From positions 1 through 20,447 of the forward strand of contig JAYPJE010000066.1 in NCBI GenBank assembly GCA_038128265.1: a DNA stretch of 20,447 nucleotides, in the 5' to 3' direction. Made by a program: the position numbers and the translations under genes. Position 1 is the stretch's first letter. Each line of letters opens with the position of its first letter. This DNA comes from Gemmatimonadota bacterium (GTDB taxonomy: Bacteria > Latescibacterota > UBA2968 > UBA8231). The notes under the pieces are model-generated. The model saw only the letters and a list, made by a program, of their open reading frames with translations, had not been told where the DNA came from and did no database searches. Below are positions 3,899 through 20,445 of this stretch, one piece after another.

Positions 3899-5263
3899 AT
3901 GCCGACGCATTCAATCCGCTCGCTACAGCAGCGCCTCTTTGCCCCTATCGACGCGGCCTCGCTGGTCTGCTTCCGCATTGCCTTTGGTCTGGTTATGGCC
4001 TGGGACATGTACGGCTTCCTGAGCCATGGCAAAGTCGACTTCCACTTTGTAGAACCCGTTTTTTACTTCAAGTACCTCGGGTTTTCCTGGGTCGAACCGT
4101 GGCCGCAGCCGTGGATATACCTGCATTTTTACGCGCTTGGCGTGCTGGCCATCTGCATTGCCATCGGGCTGCTGTACCGGCTTGCCGCAGCGCTTTTCGC
4201 GCTAGGCTACACCTACATGTTTTTGCTCGATCAGGCGCAGTATCAAAACCACTACTACCTGATCTGTCTCGTGAGCATTCTGCTCGTGTGGATTCCGGCC
4301 CACCGCTCGTTCTCGCTCGACGCGCGTCTCTTCCCGACCGTGCGCTCGCCGTGCGTTCCCAGCTGGTCGCTGTGGATACTGCGCGCCCAAATCGGTCTGG
4401 TCTATTTCTACGGCGCCGTCGCCAAGCTCAACGTCGACTGGCTGCGGGGCTGGCCGATGCGCCAGTGGCTGCCGGACAGCCTCTACCTGCCGCCCTTTTC
4501 CGGCTTCCTCAACAGCGCGGTGGCGGCTTATGCCTTTAGCTACGCCGGGCTGCTAATCGACCTATGTGCCGTTCCGCTGCTGCTGTGGCAGCGAACACGC
4601 GCGGGCATGCTGGCAATCCTGCTGGCGTTTCACCTCGTCAACAGCCAGATTTTTTCCATTGGCTCCTTCCCTTACTTGGGCACGGCTCTGAGCCTGCTCT
4701 TCCTATCGCCCTCTTGGCCGCGTGCGCTGCTGCGCTGGCCGGTGCCACTGGCCCAACCGGCGCGGGAGATGACCGCGCCGCGTCCCCATCCACTTGTCAT
4801 CGCCCTGTTCATGCTCTACCTCGGGCTGCAGGTGCTGCTGCCGCTGCGCCACTGGCTCTACCCGGGCAATCCCAGTTGGAGCGAAGAAGGTCATCGCTTC
4901 GCTTGGCACATGAAGCTGCGCGATAAAATCTGTCACTCGTCTTTTCTGCTAGAAGAATCGGCCACCGGCCAGCGCTGGCGCGTTCACCCGCGCAAGTACC
5001 TGACCGAGCGCCAGAGCGAAAAAATGGGTGGGCGACCGCATATGCTCGTGCAGTTTGCGCGCTTTCTCTCCGAGGTAGAACGACGGCCAAACGACGCGTC
5101 GATAGCCGTATACGCGCACGTCGACTGCTCGCTCAACGGCCGCCCCCCTTTCCCGCTGGTTGACCCCACCCGCGATCTGGCCCAGGCCGACTACGGCTTG
5201 GGTAGCGCCGAGTGGATTTTGCCGCTACCGACCTCGCGCGCCGGAACGCACTACGCTCCCTAA
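3899..5263 (+). CDS. HTTM-domain membrane protein, vitamin K-dependent gamma-carboxylase-like
   Basis: IDAASLVCFRIAFG, FYFKYLGFSWV.P, YQNHYYL, SLD, LRAQIGLVYFYGAVAKLNVDWLRG (Lys equivalent to the GGCX KKLDADW catalytic Lys), FHLVN...FSIGSFP, EEGHRFAWHMKLRDK, SLNGRP...VDP..DL. Multiple hydrophobic TM segments. Confidence 0.9.
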   Translation: MPTHSIRSLQQRLFAPIDAASLVCFRIAFGLVMAWDMYGFLSHGKVDFHFVEPVFYFKYLGFSWVEPWPQPWIYLHFYALGVLAICIAIGLLYRLAAALFALGYTYMFLLDQAQYQNHYYLICLVSILLVWIPAHRSFSLDARLFPTVRSPCVPSWSLWILRAQIGLVYFYGAVAKLNVDWLRGWPMRQWLPDSLYLPPFSGFLNSAVAAYAFSYAGLLIDLCAVPLLLWQRTRAGMLAILLAFHLVNSQIFSIGSFPYLGTALSLLFLSPSWPRALLRWPVPLAQPAREMTAPRPHPLVIALFMLYLGLQVLLPLRHWLYPGNPSWSEEGHRFAWHMKLRDKICHSSFLLEESATGQRWRVHPRKYLTERQSEKMGGRPHMLVQFARFLSEVERRPNDASIAVYAHVDCSLNGRPPFPLVDPTRDLAQADYGLGSAEWILPLPTSRAGTHYAP

Positions 5264-5276
5264 GCGGCGCAGCCTC

Positions 5277-6848
5277 TCAGTATGTCTCGAGCGGGGGCAG
5301 CGCCTCGGGCTGCCAGCCGCTTTTGCCCATCTCTCTGTAATCGGGCCGGTAGATCGCCTGGCCGCGCAGCGCGCTATCGGCGCGCAGTGCGGGTCGATTG
5401 ACGCCGTCTTCGGGCCAGCGCAGAATCAGCAGTGGCTTGCGCGCGTGCGGCGCATTCTGAATGGGTCGGAACGGTTCGTAAACAAAGAACAGCGAAAAGT
5501 GCGTCATGCGCTGCGCGGGAGCGCGCCGGTGCCGATCGACCCACGCTATATAGCGGACATAGCTGTCCTGCGGATGGCCATCGGCCCGTGGCTCGACAAA
5601 CCAGTATACGCTACCCAAGCCGCGAAAGGGCTGTCTGCTGCGCAGCGGCACGCCGAAGTGCGGTTTTGCGCCGGTTATAGGATCGACCTCTTCCCCAGCA
5701 GCCGTATAGCCGACGCAAACCCACCAGCCTCCATAGCGCGGCGGAGTAGGCGCATACATCTGCCAATGCGTTTCCAATTCGAATATCTGACGAAGCTCGG
5801 CAACGGCCTCCGCACCCCGATAGGGCCAGTATTCGCCGTCCAAGCGCGTCAGCCGCCGCCCCTCTACATTGAGCAAAACAATTGCAGCGAGCAGTGCCCA
5901 CAGCAGTGCGCGATGCAGAAGCGGACGTGGCAACGGCGACGCCCTGTGCACGCCGACGCCCAAGCGCTCCCACGCGCGACCGGGCACTAGGGCGACCTGT
6001 AGAGCGAGCATAGTGGCGGGAAAGCTTTCCAGCGCCAGCATCAAGCCGAGACCCACCTGCAGCAGGGTCAACAGCACCCAACCAACAAAGCGCGTGCGCG
6101 GCAGCAGGAGGGCCAACCCACCTGCCAGTTCAGTGAACCACACGGCATAGGTCGCCGCCTGCAGCAGGGTCAGCGGCGCGTGTTCGACCACCCACAGCCC
6201 GACCGATCCCGACAGCGCAACGTCCCTGAGGGCATAGTAGACAGCCGTCCCTTCGGGAATCCACGCTGCCCCATCTTTTTCCCACACGGTAGACAGGTAT
6301 ATAAAGCCGGTGTTGATGACCAGGCCCAAGCCACCAAAGCGCGCAATCAAATCTGCGCCTTCAGCACCGCGACCAACGCGCCTGTCTAGCGACCAGCAGG
6401 CGCTCGTCTCGACAAATAGCGCGCAAAACAGCGCGTGAAACAGCACGTCGTCGTGGTAGTCTATAACCCCGGCCCACTGGCGATGCGCCGTCAGCGCAAG
6501 CCAAGCGCCCAGCGCGCACAGGCGCGCGTGCCATCCCAGCAACAGACCTAGGGCCAGCAGTGCGTAGACCCCCAAAGCCGCATAGAGAAAGGCGCTATCA
6601 TCCAAACCGACCGCGCGCGCCGCAGCCAACCCATCGAAATAGCCCATCATGGCCGGCCACGTGTCGATCACAGACCACGCCAGGCTTATGTCGTATAGGA
6701 GCACTGCGGCAATGCCCATGCGGAAGCACGCCAGCGAACGCACATCGAGCACTGCACTGTGCGCCAGCCCATTCGACACGCTGCGCAGCGCTGAGCGCAC
6801 GCCACTCGCTAACCACACGGTCTGTGAAATTCTTGTGTTATTACGCAC
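5277..6848 (-). CDS. Second HTTM-domain membrane protein (SdpB-like N-terminal region, C-terminal WxMYAPxP domain)
   Basis: DVRSLACFRMGIA, LLLGWHAR, WSLD, IYLSTVWEK.GAAW..EGTAVYYAL, HWQMYAPTP and many TM segments. The GTG start at 6848 is uncertain and could be up to about 20 codons downstream. Confidence 0.82.
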   Translation of the reverse strand: MRNNTRISQTVWLASGVRSALRSVSNGLAHSAVLDVRSLACFRMGIAAVLLYDISLAWSVIDTWPAMMGYFDGLAAARAVGLDDSAFLYAALGVYALLALGLLLGWHARLCALGAWLALTAHRQWAGVIDYHDDVLFHALFCALFVETSACWSLDRRVGRGAEGADLIARFGGLGLVINTGFIYLSTVWEKDGAAWIPEGTAVYYALRDVALSGSVGLWVVEHAPLTLLQAATYAVWFTELAGGLALLLPRTRFVGWVLLTLLQVGLGLMLALESFPATMLALQVALVPGRAWERLGVGVHRASPLPRPLLHRALLWALLAAIVLLNVEGRRLTRLDGEYWPYRGAEAVAELRQIFELETHWQMYAPTPPRYGGWWVCVGYTAAGEEVDPITGAKPHFGVPLRSRQPFRGLGSVYWFVEPRADGHPQDSYVRYIAWVDRHRRAPAQRMTHFSLFFVYEPFRPIQNAPHARKPLLILRWPEDGVNRPALRADSALRGQAIYRPDYREMGKSGWQPEALPPLETY

Positions 6849-6867
6849 CTTGGGACTATTTTATACG

Positions 6868-6873
6868 TATAAT
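6868..6873 (+). promoter_or_regulatory. Putative sigma70 -10 box for the small peptide gene
   Basis: Perfect TATAAT in an AT-rich divergent intergenic region, 19 nt upstream of ATG 6893. No convincing -35 element. Confidence 0.4.
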
Positions 6874-6892
6874 TCCAGCGGAAAAAGGCATC

Positions 6893-7114
6893 ATGGAAGA
6901 CAAAAACGACAGCACCTCGGAGGAAGCCGCCCAGAGCCGGCGCGCCTTTATCAAGAAGATGACCTATGTGGCACCTGCCATGGTCACGTACAAAGTGGGC
7001 GAAAGCTGGGGCGATGACGACGATGGGGGGGGAGGCAACGCCAACAAAAATCAGAAGGGCGTGTCGCCCAATCCCGGCCTAAAGAAGAAGTACCGCGTCG
7101 AGGACGATGATTGA
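6893..7114 (+). CDS. 73-aa Asp/Glu-rich peptide with twin-arginine-like leader; candidate RiPP-like precursor
   Basis: C-terminal part of track ORF 6560..7114. The more plausible start is ATG 6893 with AAAGG RBS, which removes the overlap with the HTTM gene. Sequence MEDKNDSTSEEAAQSRRAFIKKMTYVAPAMVTYKVGESWGDDDDGGGGNANKNQKGVSPNPGLKKKYRVEDDD. It has a TATAAT upstream and a terminator downstream. Confidence 0.75.
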   Translation: MEDKNDSTSEEAAQSRRAFIKKMTYVAPAMVTYKVGESWGDDDDGGGGNANKNQKGVSPNPGLKKKYRVEDDD

Positions 7115-7120
7115 GCCACG

Positions 7121-7161
7121 GAAAAAAGCCGAGCCATTCGGATGGCGCTCCGGCCTTTTTT
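7121..7161. terminator. Probable bidirectional intrinsic terminator between the peptide gene and cheB
   Basis: A6-GCCG-A-GCCAT-TCGG-ATGGC-GCTC-CGGC-C-T6: an imperfect hairpin flanked by A and T runs between convergent stops. Confidence 0.7.
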
Positions 7162-7173
7162 GTTCTACCCGAC

Positions 7174-8247
7174 TCACCGGCCGCTTACCAGTTGAGTAAC
7201 CCGCGATGCCATCTCGTCTAACGACACCTGCTCGTCGACCAACCCCGCTTTGACCGCTTCTCCCGGCATGCCAAACACAATGCTGCTGGCTTCGTTCTGA
7301 GCCAACACATACGAACCGCGCGCTTTCATCGCCGCAAGCCCCTTGCTGCCGTCCGACCCCATACCGGTCATAATAACGCCGAGCGCTTTCGAGCCATAGA
7401 CGTCGGCGACGGAGCGAAAAAGGTAGTCGACCGATGGCCGACAGTGATGTTCGGGCGGGTCGAGCGTCGTTTCCAACGCAACGTGTCCGGCATGGCGCTT
7501 AACGCGCATATGCAAACCACCCGGCGCAATGTACACCGTGCCACTTTCCACGCGCTCCCCATCGTGCGCTTCCACCACACGCAGCGCACATTTTCCATTG
7601 AGCACAGTCGCTAGCAGCGCCGTAAACGTATCCGGCATGTGCTGGACAATTAGCACCGGCACGCTCAGGTCACCGGGCAAATTCGGCACCATTTCTCCCA
7701 GGGCACCTGGACCACCCGTGGAAACGCCAATGGCCACCACCTCGATTGACGAGCGCGGCGCTTGGCGCGGCGACGCTCTGTGCACGGCGGAGGCGGCAGG
7801 CGTTTCTGGCTGATGCGCTTGGGAAAGCGCGCTCACGGATTGGCGCGTAACAAAGGCCTGGACCACGCGCTTCAGGTCGCCCTTCAGCTTATCCTGTTCA
7901 GTGGATTCGTCGCAGTTGGAGGGCTTGCTGACGAAGTCGAACGCACCGGCCTCTAGCGCCCTCATCGTCTTTTCCACCGCCGGCTGCATAGCCGGACACG
8001 CCATGACAACGCTGGTTTGAGGATGAGATCTTAGCACCTGATGCAGCGCCGTCATGCCGCCGTCGTCGGGCAGTTCTACGTCTAGCAACAGGATATCGGG
8101 CTTGAGTTGTGCGACCTTCTCCAAAGCGCTACTGCCGCTCGTAGCCGAGCCCACAACGCGCACGTTCGGCACGTCTTGCAGCACACGTGTCAGCATTGCC
8201 AGACACGAACTGTCCGCGTCTACAACCACTACCTGCAGCGCGCTCAC
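7174..8247 (-). CDS. cheB: Chemotaxis response regulator protein-glutamate methylesterase
   Basis: N-terminal receiver (LLDVELP, GAFDFVSKP) plus a methylesterase domain with GVSTGGP (Ser), VQHMP (His), MTGMGSDG (Asp), RPSVDYLF and FGMP. GTG start with AGGG RBS. Confidence 0.93.
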   Translation of the reverse strand: MSALQVVVVDADSSCLAMLTRVLQDVPNVRVVGSATSGSSALEKVAQLKPDILLLDVELPDDGGMTALHQVLRSHPQTSVVMACPAMQPAVEKTMRALEAGAFDFVSKPSNCDESTEQDKLKGDLKRVVQAFVTRQSVSALSQAHQPETPAASAVHRASPRQAPRSSIEVVAIGVSTGGPGALGEMVPNLPGDLSVPVLIVQHMPDTFTALLATVLNGKCALRVVEAHDGERVESGTVYIAPGGLHMRVKRHAGHVALETTLDPPEHHCRPSVDYLFRSVADVYGSKALGVIMTGMGSDGSKGLAAMKARGSYVLAQNEASSIVFGMPGEAVKAGLVDEQVSLDEMASRVTQLVSGR

Positions 8248-8346: not shown

Positions 8347-10359
8347 TTAGTAGGCAACGCCAACGGGCCGCAGGTGGCGAAAGGTCTTTAGCTCTGCACG
8401 CAGCGCAATTTCGAGCAGGTACATGCCCGGAGGCAGCAGCGAACCCTCTCCGTTGCTGCCATCCCATTCCACGCGCTGCGGACCGGCACTCTGCACGCCC
8501 AAGTCAACTCGCCCGACGCGACGACCCTGCAGGTCGTATACGTTGAGCTCAACGGGAATCGCCGATGGCATGCGGTACAGCGTATAGTCGATGCGCAACG
8601 CATCGTTGATGCCGTCGCCATTCGGCGTGACGGCGGCTGAGGCAAAGGACAGATTCTCAATGATTTCACTGTTCTGCTGGCCGGCTCCGAGCACGCGCAG
8701 TGTGTTGGTGCCAATAGCCTCAGTGGCGTCGCCCGCTTCAATCTGCTGCGGCAAATTGGCACTCTGGGTATCAAACACCTCGCCGGCAAAGGTGTTGGCA
8801 AAGACAAATACTTCGGCGCCGAATACGATGCGCAGCGGGTCGCTGCTTTGCCGCGTGACGCGCTGCGGCAGGTACACGACGAGCTGGTCTTCTTCCTCGA
8901 CGATTTCGGCCGCTTCTACCTCGACCAGCGGATCGCCCATTTCTAAGCGCTTAAAGCTCGGCCGGCTGCCGGTGCGAATGCGCAGCGCGTCGAATCCGCT
9001 CTGTCCCACATTGTCGAATTGGGCACGAATATCGTAGGTAAAATCCGTCGTCTCGCCCAGCGACACTTCCGTTAGGCCGCGCTCGGGGTCGGGGTCGTCG
9101 GAGCGCGCAATTTCGCCGACGACCTGCAGGGCCAGCGGCGCCGACGTTTCGACCCACAGCGAGTCTAGACGCAGAAAATCAAAGTAGGACTCACTCTCTA
9201 GCGTAATGCGCGCTTGGATGTGCGAGCCGCGTTCGAGCGGTGCCTGCACGCCCGGTTCTGCGATGGGAAACGACCAGAAGGTCCAGTTTTCCGTATCGTA
9301 GACCACGGAGGCACGCAGACCGGGCTTGCCCTCTTGGATGCCACCACCCGTCGCCTGATCGGGCTGCTTGAGCTCGTTTTCATAGCGACTGCGCGTCACG
9401 ACGCGCTCCGCACCCGTATCGGTAAATTCGTAGTAGACGTTGGGATCGGCATCGCGCCCCGAACGCACCTCGACCTTAACCGAAGCATTTGCATCGGTCA
9501 CTTCCTCCGCTACGCCGTTAACGTAGCGCATGGGCGTCGCGCTCCAGTAGATATTGCCGAAGTTGACGATGCGTCCCAAGTCGATGACCTGAGAAATGTA
9601 GATCACGCGACGCGGCACGCCGGCTCCCTTGAGCTCAAACTCGCCGATGGTGCCCTGCTGGACACCGCGCACGCCATCGTCGATCGAAGGTTTGCGCTGC
9701 AGGCGAATAAAGCGCACATACTGCTTGGGAAATTCGAGCTGCACATTCGCTTCGTAGTTGAGCGGGAAGTCTGCCACCAGGTGCTCCAACCGATGGTAGT
9801 CGCCGTCGCCGTTTTCCTGGTTGAGCACCGGGTCAAATTCTTCAGAAATCGATACTTCAAACGCCTTAAAAATATCGTCACTCAGCGGCGTGCCGTCTGC
9901 GCGAAATCCCGTGGGCGGCGTGTAGAAACCCACGACGTTGGCGGGCACGGGCACCCCCACGTCAAAAGTGTACCATTCCGACTCAATACCGCGTCGGACC
10001 GGTGGGCTATAGGACGAACTGTCCCCGTCGACCCACTCCGTTGTCAGCGTGCCGGCCGTGAACCAGTAGAACCCGTTGGCCGCGCGCCACACGCGGGGTA
10101 TCAGACCGTCTTCGTAGTCCAGTTCGGTGGGAAATTTGAAGGGCGACCAAAACGGCAGCTGGTCGAGGATGTTGTCTTCGCCGTTGAAATAGGCCGGTGC
10201 GATAGAGCCGGGAAAGGTACGGAAGTCAATAAAGACCGTGTTGCTATCGCTGCGACTCCAGGCGTTTCCATTGCCGCCGAATTTAAAGACGCCAATTTGG
10301 CCGTCGACATGGGTGGCCAGTATGAGCAGTATCGTGAAGACGGGAAGATGTCTACGCAC
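8347..10359 (-). CDS. Secreted protein with C-terminal FlgD Ig-like/CHU_C-like domain (paralog 1)
   Basis: Signal peptide MRRHLPVFTILLILATHVDG, RBS AAGGAG before GTG, discoidin-like DGD...DVG...EFEL segment, C-terminal TPNGDGIND...YDLQGRRV...WDG...G.LLPPGMY...VGVAY. Confidence 0.85.
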   Translation of the reverse strand: MRRHLPVFTILLILATHVDGQIGVFKFGGNGNAWSRSDSNTVFIDFRTFPGSIAPAYFNGEDNILDQLPFWSPFKFPTELDYEDGLIPRVWRAANGFYWFTAGTLTTEWVDGDSSSYSPPVRRGIESEWYTFDVGVPVPANVVGFYTPPTGFRADGTPLSDDIFKAFEVSISEEFDPVLNQENGDGDYHRLEHLVADFPLNYEANVQLEFPKQYVRFIRLQRKPSIDDGVRGVQQGTIGEFELKGAGVPRRVIYISQVIDLGRIVNFGNIYWSATPMRYVNGVAEEVTDANASVKVEVRSGRDADPNVYYEFTDTGAERVVTRSRYENELKQPDQATGGGIQEGKPGLRASVVYDTENWTFWSFPIAEPGVQAPLERGSHIQARITLESESYFDFLRLDSLWVETSAPLALQVVGEIARSDDPDPERGLTEVSLGETTDFTYDIRAQFDNVGQSGFDALRIRTGSRPSFKRLEMGDPLVEVEAAEIVEEEDQLVVYLPQRVTRQSSDPLRIVFGAEVFVFANTFAGEVFDTQSANLPQQIEAGDATEAIGTNTLRVLGAGQQNSEIIENLSFASAAVTPNGDGINDALRIDYTLYRMPSAIPVELNVYDLQGRRVGRVDLGVQSAGPQRVEWDGSNGEGSLLPPGMYLLEIALRAELKTFRHLRPVGVAY

Positions 10360-12689: not shown

Positions 12690-14267
12690 ATGTTCGCACT
12701 GATCGCACTCGCCGTCCTGCTTCCCGGTCTCGCCCTGGGTGCAGACTTCCGCATCGTTCCCTACATCCAAAATACGGCTACGGACGGCGCAACCATTATC
12801 TGGTTTTCCGACGCACAAACGCCGGGGAAGCTGACCTACCGCGCGCAGGATGCGGCGGCCGAGAACGCGCTGTACTCCACACCGCAGCGCGCCGATGCGC
12901 TGGCGTATACGACCTGGGAGGACACGACCTTCTTCGGCGGACAGGCCCCAGCTGCACCCTTTCGCCACCGCTTGCGTTTGGAAAACCTGCGTGCAGCCAC
13001 GGCTTATACCTATACCGTGGAGCAGGGTGCATCTCTCTTTAGCGCCGCCTTTACTACGGCACCGCTGACCAACCAGCCCATCCGCTTTATCGCCTTTAGC
13101 GACAGTGAGACCGAGCCTGAATCAACCGGCAAGCACGCCGATTGGGCCGATCCTAAGGGCGAAGAGAAACGGCTCTATCCGCTCGATCAAACGAGCGGCT
13201 ACGCGGCCAATCTGGCTGTCATGGCCGACCGCCAACCCAACTTTATCGCCATAGCTGGCGACCTAGTTGAATCGGGCGGCGAACAGCGCGACTGGGATGA
13301 GTTTTGGCGACACATCACCGCAGAAAACGGCGATAGCAGCCTAGCCAGTCGCGTGCCCCTGCTGGCCGTGCCGGGCAACCACGAATACTACGAAGGCCCC
13401 CAGCTCGACCGCTACAACCAGCCCGGTTCCGAGCGAGCCATTGGGCGCTTCTGCAGCTATTTTGAATTTCCCGCCAACGGCTCAAACAATCCGCGGCAGC
13501 AAAACCGCTACTTTCGCTTCGACTACGGTCCCATCGCCCTGATCGGACTAGACGTGGCCAACGGCAGCCCGCACCAATCGGCGGGCGACACCAACTTCTT
13601 TCTGCTGGGAGAGGGCGAAGAAGGCGGCGGCCACGCTCCCGCCTTTGGACCCGGATCACAGCAGTATGAGTGGCTTAAAGCACAGCTCGAAGACGCGCAG
13701 CGCACGCGCCATTTCACGTTTGTGATGTTTCATCACACGCCTTACTCGGTGGGGCCGCACGGCTGGCCGCCGGGTCAAGGCGAGGGTTTTGACACGCAGT
13801 CGGGCGTGCCCGTGCGCGTGCTAACACCCCTCTTTCTGCGCTATGGAGTCGATGCCGTATTGGCTGGACACGATGAGATGTGGGAACGCTCCGAAGTGGA
13901 CGGTGTAGAGGTAGCGCAAAGCGGCGAACGCGTGCCGCACACCGTGCACTTTTACGACATAGGCATTGGCGGCGATGGACTGCGCGGTCCACAGCAGGAC
14001 CTAGTCAACCCACAGCAGGCCTTTCTCGCGCACGCGCACGCTCCCGAGCGCTGGAGCGACAGCGGGCTCGTCGACGGTGGAAAGCACTACGGTCATTTGG
14101 AAGTAGATGTGCAGCCGCTTGCCGACGGTCGCTGGCAGGCCACGCTTAAGCCCGTATACGTCTTTCCGCTCTTTGCCGCAGACGGCACCTACCAGGGCAG
14201 CGAGCGGCGCCTCTACGACGACGTCGTCACGCTGACGACTAGTAGGCTACGCCCACAATCCGACTAA
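12690..14267 (+). CDS. Secreted purple-acid-phosphatase-like metallophosphoesterase with N-terminal FN3-like domain
   Basis: Signal peptide, PYIQN...I.W, H..RLENL..AT.YTY.V FN3-like region, and calcineurin-like motifs FSDSE, AGDLVE, PGNHE, FHH.PYS, GHDE. The start could be TTG 12681. Confidence 0.85.
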   Translation: MFALIALAVLLPGLALGADFRIVPYIQNTATDGATIIWFSDAQTPGKLTYRAQDAAAENALYSTPQRADALAYTTWEDTTFFGGQAPAAPFRHRLRLENLRAATAYTYTVEQGASLFSAAFTTAPLTNQPIRFIAFSDSETEPESTGKHADWADPKGEEKRLYPLDQTSGYAANLAVMADRQPNFIAIAGDLVESGGEQRDWDEFWRHITAENGDSSLASRVPLLAVPGNHEYYEGPQLDRYNQPGSERAIGRFCSYFEFPANGSNNPRQQNRYFRFDYGPIALIGLDVANGSPHQSAGDTNFFLLGEGEEGGGHAPAFGPGSQQYEWLKAQLEDAQRTRHFTFVMFHHTPYSVGPHGWPPGQGEGFDTQSGVPVRVLTPLFLRYGVDAVLAGHDEMWERSEVDGVEVAQSGERVPHTVHFYDIGIGGDGLRGPQQDLVNPQQAFLAHAHAPERWSDSGLVDGGKHYGHLEVDVQPLADGRWQATLKPVYVFPLFAADGTYQGSERRLYDDVVTLTTSRLRPQSD

Positions 14268-16890
14268 CACCGCTGCTGTTTTCACCGTCGCTGTCGACGC
14301 CGATGCGGGCCAGATACAGCCCGGGAGGCACCAACATACCTCCTTCGTCGCGGCCGTCCCAGCGCAGGCTATACTGGCCGTTGGCCAGCGCACGGCTCTC
14401 TTCTATCCGTCGTATCGCACGACCGCTGAGATCAAAGAGCGAGACGCTCACAGCGCGGGCGGCGTTGATCTTGAGCACGGCAAATTCAAAAACGGCTTCG
14501 TCGTTTATACCGTCGCCGTTTGGCGTTAGTGCACCTGGGCTGGCAATCATCCTAATGACGCGACGGTCCAAGGGCGTCAGCACTGTAAGCCCTTCGCCCA
14601 CGGCCAACTCATCGCCAACGCCTTCGCCCGGATCCACGCTTTGCCAGTTGTCCGGATCCTGCGAATTGCCCACCTCGACGGCAAAGGTCGAACCGCTCTG
14701 ATACACGGTCGATGAGAAGGAGAGGCGCAGCACTTCTGCTCCGCCGCGCTGCTGCACTCGAGGCAGTTCGATAAAGAGCGAGTCCGTGCCCTGACCGCTC
14801 ACCGTCAGGACTTCTCCCTCCGCATTGGCCAGTGCGCCGTCATCGCCACGAACGAAGCCATCCCCCACGGCCGCAGCCGCCAGTTCGCTCTCGCGCCCCA
14901 AATCCACGCGGGCCAGTAGCATGGCCGCGCGCGAGGGCGCTACGACGCGCACGCGGTCGAAACCCGAATCGCGCGCGGCAAACGACGGGCGCACAAAGAG
15001 CTCGAAATTGGCCGGCACCCCGATGGGCACTTCCTGCTTGGGCTCGATCTCACCGACAATGCTTTCGGCCAGCGGCCGAGTGAAGTGCACCTGGATAGAG
15101 CGGAGCGTCGCCGCGGCGTCTCCCGAATCGCTGGAGAGACGCGCCTGCACCATCATATAGCGGCGCGGACTGGGCGAAAGAACGCGTGCACCGGGCTCGT
15201 CGTAAGCCTGGCTCCAGCTGCTCCAACCTTGGCCCGGCTGCAACTCGACCTGTATTTCGCCCTGGAAAAACGTCGGCAGCTTGTTGTATTCTTCTTCGTT
15301 GGCTACCTGCGAACCGTCGGCCTTGAAGTAGCTTTTAACCTCGCGCAAGTCGTCTCCGCTGCGCGTGCGAATTTCCACCGTCGTGCCGGGCGGCAGATCG
15401 GCCTGCCAGTCTATCGTCGTCAGGTTTTTGGCCGCACCTAAATCGATGAGATCGGACTGCATTTCCAACCTCGGTAAATAGCCCTCGGCGTAGACTTCTA
15501 TTTCGGTGACTACGCTGGGAACGCGGTGCCCTAGGTGGGCCAACGTGCGGCGAGCAATATCCAAGTTGCGGAACTCCAAAAAGCGCAGGACGCGCGAATC
15601 AAAGCGATCTTCAAAAAGCCGGGTATTCTGGTTGAGCAGGCGATCTTCACTGCTCAAGTCTTCCCAGATAAAGCTGCCGTCCGGCGCGCGCGCGCCGTCC
15701 GAGCCGCGCAGCAAATAGCCGTAGAGCACGCGGCCGCCCCCGTCGAGCAGGCGCGTTACAAAGCGCACGGCATTGACGCGGAAGTGAGCGCCCAAATCCA
15801 CATTGAGCAAACCCCACTCGACCGTCTCACCGGTAATGTCGTACACCACGCCCGACCATTCGCTGCTCATATTGCCGTCAAAGGCCAGCTCCGGCGAGGC
15901 GTTGGGGTTGACGTCGTGCAGGCTGCCGCCGCGCCCTATGAGCCCCAATGAGATATTCTCGCCAACCGTCTGGACTTCTACCTCGGCCAAGCGCGGCAGT
16001 TCGCGGCGAAAGTAGCGAATGCCGCCCTGTTCGGCTGCGACCAGCTCTCCGTAGCGCTCTTCGCTGACCAGACGCTCTTCGTCGGCGATGCGCCAGATGT
16101 ATTCAACGGCACCGCGCGCGCTGACTGGCAGCGCTTGGTAGCCCTCTGCAGAAACTTCTTCGGCGCGATCGGCGCGCGTATCTGTGACCGCAATGCGCAG
16201 GTACTGCACCATGCGCCCCGTCCAACCGTCCGAATGAGGGCCGATGGGATCCAATTCAAACTCAAATAGCCGCTGGTCGCGGTTGGGCTGCGTCGTGCCG
16301 CCGACCAATACGTAGTCGAGCGCACCGCTGCGATCCGCCGTGCCAAAGGGATTCTGCCCACCGGCCGAGTGCACTCTGAACTGCAGGAAGGGATCGCCCT
16401 CTTCGGCGAAGCGCAATACGACCTTTGTCGCCGACACCAGGCGGCCCAAATCGATTTCTAACACCCAATCGCTCAGCGGATCGGCCGGATTGGGCTCCCA
16501 GAATGTCAATTCGTCTCCATCCATGACGCGCGGGGCTATGTTGGGATTCGAGGGGGCCTGCTTGATGCCACCGCGCGCGCGCAGCTCACCGTCCAGATCA
16601 AAGGCGTTGGCATACTGACTGCGCACGTTGCCGCCGATGATATGGCTAAACTGGCTCGCATCGGACAATGCGTTGTACGGACCGCGCACAAAGCGCGAGC
16701 GGATTGCACCATCCGCATCGACCTCTACCATATCGCCGGGAAAGCTCCACGCCCGCCAATGCGCGCTGCTGCTCGTCTCCACTCGATCGGCGCGCAGGCT
16801 GTAGCCGCGCGGCTGAGCCAGCAGAGGCGTCGCGAAAAAAAAGAGTACGAGGCCCATTACAGCTCTCGAAGTCCGCCGACTCGTCATCAT
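14239..16890 (-). CDS. Secreted protein with two discoidin-like segments and C-terminal FlgD Ig-like/CHU_C-like domain (paralog 2)
   Basis: Signal peptide ending PLLA-Q. DGDELTFW...IDLGR and FDGN...VDLGA...EIEVY repeats. TRSGD, WSSWS..Y, SPSPRRY, TPNGDGIND, WDGRDEGG.LVPPGLY, VGVAY end. The start overlaps the upstream stop (ATGA). Confidence 0.88.
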   Translation of the reverse strand: MMTSRRTSRAVMGLVLFFFATPLLAQPRGYSLRADRVETSSSAHWRAWSFPGDMVEVDADGAIRSRFVRGPYNALSDASQFSHIIGGNVRSQYANAFDLDGELRARGGIKQAPSNPNIAPRVMDGDELTFWEPNPADPLSDWVLEIDLGRLVSATKVVLRFAEEGDPFLQFRVHSAGGQNPFGTADRSGALDYVLVGGTTQPNRDQRLFEFELDPIGPHSDGWTGRMVQYLRIAVTDTRADRAEEVSAEGYQALPVSARGAVEYIWRIADEERLVSEERYGELVAAEQGGIRYFRRELPRLAEVEVQTVGENISLGLIGRGGSLHDVNPNASPELAFDGNMSSEWSGVVYDITGETVEWGLLNVDLGAHFRVNAVRFVTRLLDGGGRVLYGYLLRGSDGARAPDGSFIWEDLSSEDRLLNQNTRLFEDRFDSRVLRFLEFRNLDIARRTLAHLGHRVPSVVTEIEVYAEGYLPRLEMQSDLIDLGAAKNLTTIDWQADLPPGTTVEIRTRSGDDLREVKSYFKADGSQVANEEEYNKLPTFFQGEIQVELQPGQGWSSWSQAYDEPGARVLSPSPRRYMMVQARLSSDSGDAAATLRSIQVHFTRPLAESIVGEIEPKQEVPIGVPANFELFVRPSFAARDSGFDRVRVVAPSRAAMLLARVDLGRESELAAAAVGDGFVRGDDGALANAEGEVLTVSGQGTDSLFIELPRVQQRGGAEVLRLSFSSTVYQSGSTFAVEVGNSQDPDNWQSVDPGEGVGDELAVGEGLTVLTPLDRRVIRMIASPGALTPNGDGINDEAVFEFAVLKINAARAVSVSLFDLSGRAIRRIEESRALANGQYSLRWDGRDEGGMLVPPGLYLARIGVDSDGENSSGVSRIVGVAY

Positions 16891-18636: not shown

Positions 18637-20445
18637 CTAGTAAGCCAGCGCAATATAGCCCAGTTTCTCCTCGCTGCCGCTGTCCGACTCGACGGCAATG
18701 CGCACAATGTATAAACCCGGTGCAGCCATCTGACCCCGATTGTCGCGTCCATCCCACGCCAGCTGATACAGCATGCCCGTTCCGCTGCTGCTGCTCAAAT
18801 CGCGCACTTTGCGCCCGGTTAAATCGCGAATTTCCACCGTCAGCGGCATCGCTTTGGTCAGGCGCAACAGCGCATAGCGAATTTGTACCTCATCGTTGAT
18901 GCCATCCCCGTTGGGCGTAAAGGGGTTGGGACCCATCGACACGTCATCGAGGAGGCGGCCCTCGAGCGCAGTGTGGACGACGATATCGTCGCTCAGCAGT
19001 GTCGCCACGGCATCACCCGGGGTCACTTCCTGGCCGACTTCATCCGTCTCGCTATCAACTACCGAGGCGCTGAAGACCGTTCCGTACACGAATACGCGCG
19101 CATCAAAGTCGATTTCCAGCAAGGTTTGGTCCTGGGCAATGCGGGGGAAGCGCACGGTGAACTGATGGGGATCATTGGGGTCGAATACTGCGCCATAATC
19201 AACTTCTTGGCGGTCGATGCGCACGGCTGCAATCTTTTCTACCCGCGCCGACGTGCGCAGTTCAAGCTGATCGAAGCCCGGCTGTCCCGCGTCCATTCGC
19301 GCGCGAACGGCATAGGTAAACTGGACCTGTTCGGCCGGGTTGACCGACGAAGGATGAATCTCGCCGATCACCGTGCCGACAATGGGTGGCTGCGAATACT
19401 CAAAGAACAGCGAGTCAAGCTGACCACCTTGCAAACCCTGCGACGAAAAGTCGATGCGCAGCTGCACAAATTGGCGCGGGCCCGGCGACAGTATGCGCGT
19501 GCCGTCCAGCCCGTCTTCGTATTCATAGGTATGCCAAACACTCCAATTTTCCAGGTCCTGCGTAATCCGACCGCGCACGTTTTGCGGCATGGAAAAGTAG
19601 TCGGCGCGCGACATCGGAGCCCCGCTGGCCAGCGTGGAAACCTCCTGGTCTCCAACGCCCGTTTTGCGCCAGTAGACTTCGGGCTGGTCGTCGCTGCCGC
19701 TGCGCGTCTGAATCAGAATTTTAGAGTTGGCATCGCGCTGGCCGCTCCACCAGATTCGCCCCAAGCTAGATAGCGCACCCAGATCAATGGGGTCGGAAAT
19801 GTACGATGCCTTGGGAACAAACCCCTGGCCGTAAACCTCAAACTCGGCGACTTCCCACGTATCGCCCACTTCCAGTGGGTGCAGGTAGAGGTGGCGCACG
19901 ATCTGAGGCTCGACACTCAGTTCCACGCGCGCATTGAGGTTGTCTTTCTCATCGTGCACGAGCGTCCACACGATGTTCCCTTTGTCGTCGCGACTTTCAG
20001 CACTGCCGTCGTTTAGATAGAAGCGAAACTGCCGTATTTTATTGCCCGGCTGATCGGGACGCGTCGAAAAGGCTACGCGCTCTATGGGAAAGGGTGCACC
20101 CAAGTCAAAAAACATGGGCGTGGTATAAAAGTAGCCCGGTCGAAAAAAATCGATGCGCGGCGGATGCACAAAGGCCGTCGCTGGATCTCCGTCAATGGCG
20201 AAACCGCGCGTATCGGACCAATTGGCTGGCAAGGTGTAAATGCTAACTAGGCTGGTGAGATCGCCGCCCCGGTTGCGCATCGTGCTGACGAGATTGTGGC
20301 TCAACTCGGTGCTCAGGGGGCGAATGCTGCCCGGTGCGAACGCCTCGTCGATATAGCTCGGCGTGCCCACAGCCGACCAGGAGACGCCCGTCGCTCCGCC
20401 TAATTGATAGTGTTCGCGTCCACTGGCCGATGCAGCCAGCAGGCA
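18637..20445 (-). CDS. Secreted protein with C-terminal FlgD Ig-like/CHU_C-like domain (paralog 3), 5' end beyond the window
   Basis: The frame stays open upstream of 20370 to the window edge (…CLLAASASGREHYQLGGATGVSWSAVG, the end of a signal peptide). IDGDPATAF, FDLGAPF, EFEVYGQGF, IDLG, TRSG, WSVW..Y, SPGPRQF, PNPFTPNGDGIND, WDGRDNRG..AAPGLY, IALAY end. Confidence 0.88.
   Translation of the reverse strand, partial: CLLAASASGREHYQLGGATGVSWSAVGTPSYIDEAFAPGSIRPLSTELSHNLVSTMRNRGGDLTSLVSIYTLPANWSDTRGFAIDGDPATAFVHPPRIDFFRPGYFYTTPMFFDLGAPFPIERVAFSTRPDQPGNKIRQFRFYLNDGSAESRDDKGNIVWTLVHDEKDNLNARVELSVEPQIVRHLYLHPLEVGDTWEVAEFEVYGQGFVPKASYISDPIDLGALSSLGRIWWSGQRDANSKILIQTRSGSDDQPEVYWRKTGVGDQEVSTLASGAPMSRADYFSMPQNVRGRITQDLENWSVWHTYEYEDGLDGTRILSPGPRQFVQLRIDFSSQGLQGGQLDSLFFEYSQPPIVGTVIGEIHPSSVNPAEQVQFTYAVRARMDAGQPGFDQLELRTSARVEKIAAVRIDRQEVDYGAVFDPNDPHQFTVRFPRIAQDQTLLEIDFDARVFVYGTVFSASVVDSETDEVGQEVTPGDAVATLLSDDIVVHTALEGRLLDDVSMGPNPFTPNGDGINDEVQIRYALLRLTKAMPLTVEIRDLTGRKVRDLSSSSGTGMLYQLAWDGRDNRGQMAAPGLYIVRIAVESDSGSEEKLGYIALAY

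Follow-up and report, generated by a model that had tools for sequence, protein, structure and literature searches.

A conserved RiPP-like precursor beside two GGCX-like genes may belong to a dispersed, LPP-like modification system

Introduction

Previous reports describe peptides made on the ribosome and modified afterwards (RiPPs) that are phosphorylated on serine. In the LPP systems of Bacillota the precursor, with a YxxP motif at positions -16/-13, is served by a gene trio encoding a discrete RiPP recognition element (RRE), an HprK-like kinase and an uncharacterised nucleoside triphosphate transferase, and the genes lie in capsule loci (PMC13381572). In the lasso peptides paeninodin and pseudomycoidin a serine kinase (PadeK, PsmK) acts before nucleotidyltransferase-dependent glycosylation (PsmN) (PMC9266682, PMC11912497), and YxxP is a known RRE motif (PMC12710340). 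A different chemistry is represented by MloH of the malonomycin pathway, which is described as carrying out alpha-carboxylation of an Asp on an intermediate of a nonribosomal peptide synthetase-polyketide synthase (NRPS-PKS) (10.64898/2026.08.19.745780, PMC12186529). Parts of these papers were available, and what we take from them holds for those parts. Here we examine a stretch of 20,447 nucleotides (the window; contig JAYPJE010000066.1 of assembly GCA_038128265.1, a bacterium placed in the Latescibacterota) in which a gene for a 73-residue peptide stands beside two genes for HTTM proteins related to GGCX, the vitamin K-dependent carboxylase. The original prediction suggested that the HTTM pair may mature the peptide by carboxylating its acidic residues. 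We find it likelier, with considerable room for doubt, that the peptide is a precursor standing on its own, modified by a dispersed system of LPP-like (HPr-rel-type) kind, and that the HTTM genes serve other substrates.

Compared with LPP, as far as the available part of that report describes it, the present system shares the discrete RRE, the HprK-like kinase, the uncharacterised transferase, the link to polysaccharide loci and a YxxP leader with a conserved N-terminus and a variable C-terminus. It differs in that the leader is of the twin-arginine type and in that the genes are scattered within the family rather than clustered with the precursor; neither a SipW-like peptidase nor an MsbA-like pump was seen among the annotated neighbours of the loci, no genome-wide search for them having been made. 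The best matches among NCBIfam-type models were to HPr-rel-A (TIGR04352 kinase, TIGR04353 PqqD), which has the PF14907 partner in common; both scores lie below the cut-offs, and the libraries searched define no precursor for HPr-rel-A. A serine kinase, a nucleotidyltransferase and a YxxP leader are shared with the phosphorylated lasso peptides, but no cyclase or B2 peptidase was seen at these loci. A literature search that left most subscription journals uncovered returned no paper on precursors combining a twin-arginine leader, an RRE and HprK, or on HPr-rel, TIGR04352 or TIGR04353. The gene trio has been described before, as has LPP as a close pathway; what is new is that the genes are dispersed, that the Ser-Pro site is internal and that a GGCX neighbour recurs.

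Results

The peptide gene (window 6893-7114, + strand) encodes a twin-arginine pair (R16, R17), an RRE-type YxxP motif (Y25-P28) and a low-complexity core with a conserved Ser58-Pro59. Leader cleavage would fall near residue 40, because LPP spacing puts the tyrosine at -16; Ser58, the only serine of the core, would then lie at about +18. The gene is present in one copy in 20 of the 76 genomes of the family, the same 20 being returned by two profiles, and no second copy was found in the source genome (G000 in our numbering, in which other G numbers denote related genomes and L numbers loci). It also occurs in 32 metagenome loci, and the profile collects 259 representatives at 50% identity (E<=0.001). 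The twin arginines, a Phe, YxxP, a Thr and a stretch of small residues resembling a signal peptidase site are conserved across the family, and the Ser-Pro within this clade; of the 150 matches listed, the leader pattern is seen in 137, and in 53 of these a Ser-Pro follows later on. Outside the Ser-Pro the core varies freely, with 0 to 29 Asp. We retain from the original prediction a real, conserved and probably exported RiPP-like precursor, Tat (twin-arginine translocation) export being plausible. Its description as Asp/Glu-rich fits this copy, not the family: 14 of the 73 residues are acidic (D+E 19%, against 12.7% in the remaining window proteins), but 12 are Lys or Arg, giving a net charge of -2, and the core, with its single Glu in this copy, has no Glu at all in G020, G031 and G074. 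The conserved core site is Ser-Pro, and not an acid as had been proposed for the modification.

Neither Pfam nor NCBIfam gave a name above cut-off to the peptide or to seven relatives, and an Atlas search returned only unnamed clusters (at 0.93), with Tat-signal families below 0.9. No match to the profile was found in a scan of viral contigs. One family member (L115:5989-6177) lies on a virus-like metagenome contig among genes for an SNF2 helicase, a glycosyltransferase, a NUDIX protein and a methyltransferase; another (L075:10059-11012, genome G027) is head-to-head with a PRMT/PrmA-like methyltransferase gene, and Arg-Gly repeats occur in many of the family's cores.

The genes whose distribution follows that of the peptide lie elsewhere in the genome. 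In G000 a PqqD/RRE protein is encoded at C36:39339-39590, directly upstream of a PF14907 nucleotidyltransferase gene and before a Wza-type polysaccharide exporter, and an HprK-related kinase with its His, Walker A and Asp-Glu motifs at C1:124228-124809, between DUF2203 and smc; with the peptide gene, these occupy three contigs. PF14907 scored above cut-off in 29 of the 76 family genomes, including all 20 with the peptide, and an RRE orthologue was present in 22, of which 19 have the peptide. The kinase (threshold E<1e-8) occurred in 24 genomes, 16 of them with the peptide, or 18 once a direct search had added the kinase of G026 and one in G012 that is split. The Jaccard overlap with the peptide was highest for the RRE (0.83; 19/23), followed by PF14907 (0.69), HTTM2, the second HTTM protein of the window (0.59), the kinase (0.57), an unrelated control, CheB (0.42), and GGCX (0.29). 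Within the genus of the source genome all four genes are found in the same three of eight genomes.

A predicted complex of the RRE with the peptide scored 0.45, against 0.02 for the best control. The mark was reached by 116 of 157 solved pairs and by 2 of 215 mismatched pairs; among scores of 0.60 or less that pass it there were only 18 of the 157 solved pairs and both of the mismatches. Runs agreed in at least 95% of contacts with a partner pLDDT (predicted local distance difference test) of at least 49, and the score may stem from resemblance to solved RRE-leader complexes. The prediction lends weak support to leader binding. A second PqqD match in G000, on contig C4, stands beside unrelated membrane genes.

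Clustering in cis is stronger evidence than co-occurrence. A search of 92 genomes of other families returned 12 peptide matches, 11 of them genuine; the twelfth, in G113, is a 538-residue Tat protein and was rejected. In 7 of the 11 (G155, G156, G157, G137, G129, G115 and G118), and in G120 when inspected by hand, the peptide is close to the enzyme genes, and in these eight genomes, from four families, it lies within a few kilobases of two or three of the RRE, kinase and PF14907 genes. In G155-G157 the cassette is followed by Wza/Wzc-type genes, and in G156, G157 and G137 the leader and a Ser/Pro stretch form fusions with IPT/TIG domains. Such leader-IPT/TIG fusions measure 258-351 residues at L259, L261, L265 and L264, where the cassette also encodes two unannotated multi-pass membrane proteins, which we take to resemble GT-C enzymes. 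The 32 metagenome loci comprise eight with HTTM DNA, five with an RRE, kinase or nucleotidyltransferase gene (among them three that combine a radical SAM-SPASM-RRE protein with Cys-rich cores), and 19 with neither, many of these being short. At L095, L100 and L106 the same leader class precedes Cys-rich repeat cores in an unnamed RiPP cluster, with genes downstream for a radical SAM-SPASM-RRE protein, an HprK-like kinase, a methyltransferase, an RRE and PF14907.

The association with the HTTM genes is narrower. The peptide adjoins an HTTM gene in 7 of its 20 genomes, all within two genera; of the other 13, nine were examined over 12-18 kb and four over about 3 kb, with no HTTM gene found, and the usual neighbours there are a creatininase-like gene and a short-chain dehydrogenase/reductase gene. 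Since the seven peptide-adjacent GGCX proteins form one clade in the tree (support 100/100; a fragment at L111 with 83 aligned residues was excluded), the adjacency appears to be one evolutionary event in the ancestor of the two genera. Genome-wide, a GGCX-type gene is present in 8 of the 20 peptide genomes and an HTTM2 orthologue in 13; that is, 12 lack the former and 7 the latter, and no HTTM2 orthologue was found in any of ten peptide genomes tested from other families. The most acidic cores (15-29 Asp; G030, G035, G091) belong to genomes without GGCX and without an intact HTTM2, and acid-free cores stand beside intact HTTM2 at L088 and L096. In G001 HTTM2 has been deleted and the peptide is still 84% identical; what survives of the lost gene, between those for the peptide and GGCX, is a short remnant made up of its two ends (L067:3056-3215). 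The peptide is present in all ten genomes whose GGCX is of the WHMKL subtype. The proposal that the HTTM pair is the maturation system is not supported by these distributions, and of the co-conservation it called for we find adjacency in two genera, while the RRE, kinase and PF14907 genes track the peptide instead. At most, the products of the two HTTM genes would add further, optional modifications.

That both genes are GGCX-like, and that both keep the catalytic lysine, is borne out. Gene 1 (window 3899-5263, + strand, 454 residues) combines the HTTM domain (PF05090, 287 bits) with the lumenal domain (PF22777, 137 bits), and its residues 7-443 match residues 49-505 of the 758 of human GGCX (E 3e-50). 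Residues named in the available part of a cryo-EM preprint (10.1101/2025.02.09.637231) were mapped onto this alignment: K218 corresponds to K176, and the vitamin K pocket N159/H160, F286/N290/F294/F299 and M401 to N117/H118, F244/N248/F252/F257 and M338. K217 is replaced by Ala and Y395 by His; K217A was reported there to be without effect on catalysis in GGCX. Compared with animal GGCX (e.g. PDB 9bvk, 9l20), gene 1 keeps the fold, K218 and the pocket, but the propeptide-binding C-terminal third is missing, the alignment ending at about residue 505, and the locus has no Gla-domain-like substrate. Plasmid searches returned five GGCX-type records, and viral sequences no match.

Gene 2 (HTTM2; window 5277-6848, - strand, 523 residues, GTG start) fell 0.5 bit short of the Pfam HTTM cut-off (27.2 against 27.7 bits), and a sequence search of PDB gave no useful match. 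Its predicted model (pLDDT 85) had only GGCX among its 15 Foldseek matches at E<=0.001, the best at E 2e-7 and a TM (template modeling) score of 0.43; the fold and Lys of the animal enzyme are shared. Profile comparison with the GGCX type (probability 99.0) aligns K191 with K176 of gene 1 and H132 with H118; both are invariant in ten orthologues, and the conserved GGCX-like Lys/His/Phe/Trp-Met residues are present. The match to the SdpB model TIGR04033 (17.4 bits) is far below the cut-off of 178. With MloH and with SdpB/LinG-type proteins the pair shares a bacterial HTTM plus lumenal domain architecture, but no NRPS/PKS or linaridin genes are found at the locus. Because catalytic residues are kept, the fold is that of GGCX and the genome carries futalosine-pathway MqnA/D menaquinone genes (TatC is also encoded), both proteins are plausibly active; they are probably vitamin K (menaquinone)-dependent, periplasm-facing GGCX-type enzymes with other substrates. 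The HTTM2 orthologue set comprises 15 genomes, five weaker matches at E 1e-41 to 1e-54 and still weaker ones being excluded; 13 of the 15 have the peptide, against 16 of all 30 genomes with any HTTM2-like match. The ancestral or usual context is DUF480-HTTM2-PhyH/aldehyde dehydrogenase, and 9 of the 15 orthologue loci have no peptide nearby. A scan of a collection of genome contigs with HTTM2 gave one locus, and a plasmid search none.

The layout of the locus is as the original prediction had it: three genes, gaps of 13 nt (gene 1/gene 2) and 44 nt (gene 2/peptide), a TATAAT and a terminator-like hairpin. The -10-like TATAAT at 6868-6873, in the divergent gap, has no matching -35 in a sigma-70 scan and is kept in the same-genus genome G001 but not in six other intergenic regions compared; the hexamer occurs genome-wide at 0.11 per kb. 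It overlaps a perfect 12-bp palindrome (6861-6872) that is absent from the relatives compared. An A run precedes the hairpin at 7121-7161 (-13.8 kcal/mol) and a T run follows it; it is therefore probably bidirectional, serving the convergent cheB gene as well, and not the peptide's own. In one metatranscriptome, two contigs span 6887-7214 at a depth of about 4, which is a weak sign of transcription, as such data may include DNA; no contig of the run crosses the two HTTM genes, which is uninformative at that depth.

The wider window encodes a glutaredoxin, an aldehyde dehydrogenase, PhyH, CheB and secreted FlgD-Ig proteins, and Pfam and NCBIfam scans found no further RiPP enzyme among its proteins. 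In G020 and G031 cheB is preceded by cheA/cheW-like genes; here (7174-8247) these are missing, and a FlgD-Ig gene lies upstream instead. The genes at 8347-10359, 14239-16890 and 18637-20370 encode three large secreted proteins whose last domains are of the FlgD-Ig/CHU_C type, with a peptidyl-prolyl isomerase gene between two of them.

Discussion

We propose that the PqqD/RRE protein would bind the YxxP of the leader, that the HprK-related kinase would phosphorylate Ser58 of Ser58-Pro59, as LPP and the lasso kinases suggest, and that the PF14907 enzyme would then place a nucleotide or sugar on the phosphoserine, in the manner of PsmN. The twin-arginine leader would direct Tat export, with a cut near residue 40, and the product may be a small charged peptide of the surface or matrix, linked to exopolysaccharide. 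This proposal builds on what was observed, namely the gene family with its conserved motifs, the co-occurrence, and relatives in which the cassette is intact; the enzymatic steps are drawn by analogy with LPP and PadeK/PsmK/PsmN.

The proposal should be read with some caution. The CheB control also overlaps the peptide (11/17 genomes), so part of the co-occurrence reflects shared lifestyle, and the counts include kin genomes and are not independent. In two near-closed genomes, G015 and G028, three profiles detect no peptide, although the RRE, nucleotidyltransferase and kinase are all encoded; the kinase was not found in G018 or G033, nor PF14907 in G161. The kinase reaches 93.5 bits against a cut-off of 200 (TIGR04352) and the RRE 31 against 35 (TIGR04353). 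The leader matches no Tat model, although its twin arginine is invariant and TatC is encoded, and its hydrophobicity is weak (highest mean over 13 residues 0.9). The candidate serine is an internal Ser-Pro, whereas the available part of the LPP report places its serine at S3 and the lasso kinases, in what could be seen of those reports, act on a C-terminal one. Finally, GGCX-type DNA lies near peptides in three separate settings.

This recurrence is why we keep carboxylation as a minority reading, albeit an improbable one: in a periplasmic second step, the GGCX-type enzyme and/or HTTM2 would use menaquinol, O2 and CO2 to carboxylate the Asp-rich core, giving a Ca2+- or mineral-binding peptide. 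The active site of GGCX faces the lumen, and a periplasm-facing site here would suit an exported substrate. Besides the present locus, GGCX DNA stands two genes away from an Asp-rich peptide at L111, and in G156 a 106-residue remnant of the lumenal domain lies within the RRE/kinase/nucleotidyltransferase cassette; at L096 an in-frame stop in GGCX coincides with the acid-free core, on one contig and possibly through an error. The retained K218 and pocket equivalents, the menaquinone genes, and the presence of the peptide in 10/10 WHMKL-GGCX and 13/15 HTTM2-orthologue genomes fit as well. A specific version, in which a WHMKL-type GGCX would act as a second-stage tailoring enzyme, carboxylating Asp runs after phospho-glycosylation of the Ser-Pro to yield a calcium- or mineral-binding matrix peptide like a Gla protein, we rate as similarly doubtful; if true, it would be the first ribosomal substrate of a bacterial vitamin K-dependent carboxylase. 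Against carboxylation stand the 12 of 20 peptide genomes without GGCX, the cores of 15-29 Asp without either intact enzyme, the scarcity of core Glu, the missing propeptide-binding domain, the single event behind the adjacency, and the persistence of the peptide in G001 after loss of HTTM2. VKOR was not found in the 84%-complete genome, the MloH precedent, as far as its sources could be seen, acts on an NRPS-PKS intermediate rather than a ribosomal peptide, and a literature search without most subscription journals found no carboxylated bacterial RiPP.

HTTM2 could alternatively be a maturation or export helper like SdpB or LinG, with chemistry other than carboxylation and co-transcribed from the 44-nt divergent gap. 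It is head-to-head with the peptide in six genomes and three metagenome-type loci, HTTM proteins of unclear role are found in linaridin clusters (PMC9927463, available in part), and a weak SdpB match exists. That match, however, is a tenth of the cut-off, nine of the 15 orthologue loci have the DUF480/PhyH/aldehyde dehydrogenase context, the two genes are 580 kb apart in G021, the orthologue is missing from all ten other-family peptide genomes tested, and G001 suggests that the peptide is processed and exported normally without it; we consider such a helper very improbable. A decayed cassette, in which the peptide would be an unmodified small charged molecule, exported or cytoplasmic, and the co-occurrence a matter of shared loss in reduced lineages, is unlikely in our view. 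The spread over three contigs, the co-occurring CheB control, the enzymes kept by G015 and G028, and copies that end before the Ser-Pro (G012, G033) would all agree with decay, but YxxP spacing and the Ser-Pro are kept while the remaining core is randomised, and the RRE overlap (19/23) is far tighter than that of CheB.

The LPP-like assignment that we prefer gives the widespread, uncharacterised RRE/kinase/nucleotidyltransferase trio a small, concrete candidate substrate, with Ser58 as the site, and would mean that a pathway of this kind can endure when its genes are dispersed across the genome. RiPP mining based on neighbourhood would here give the precursor to the wrong enzymes. For substrates of bacterial GGCX-like proteins the locus offers a cheap test at low odds. 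Elsewhere, at L314:8619-10809 of G064, the gene for a different GGCX subtype lies immediately downstream of one for a secreted FlgD-Ig protein; this protein, which has Asp/Glu-Gly repeats and gives EF-hand-like matches, is a better-looking Glu-rich candidate substrate.

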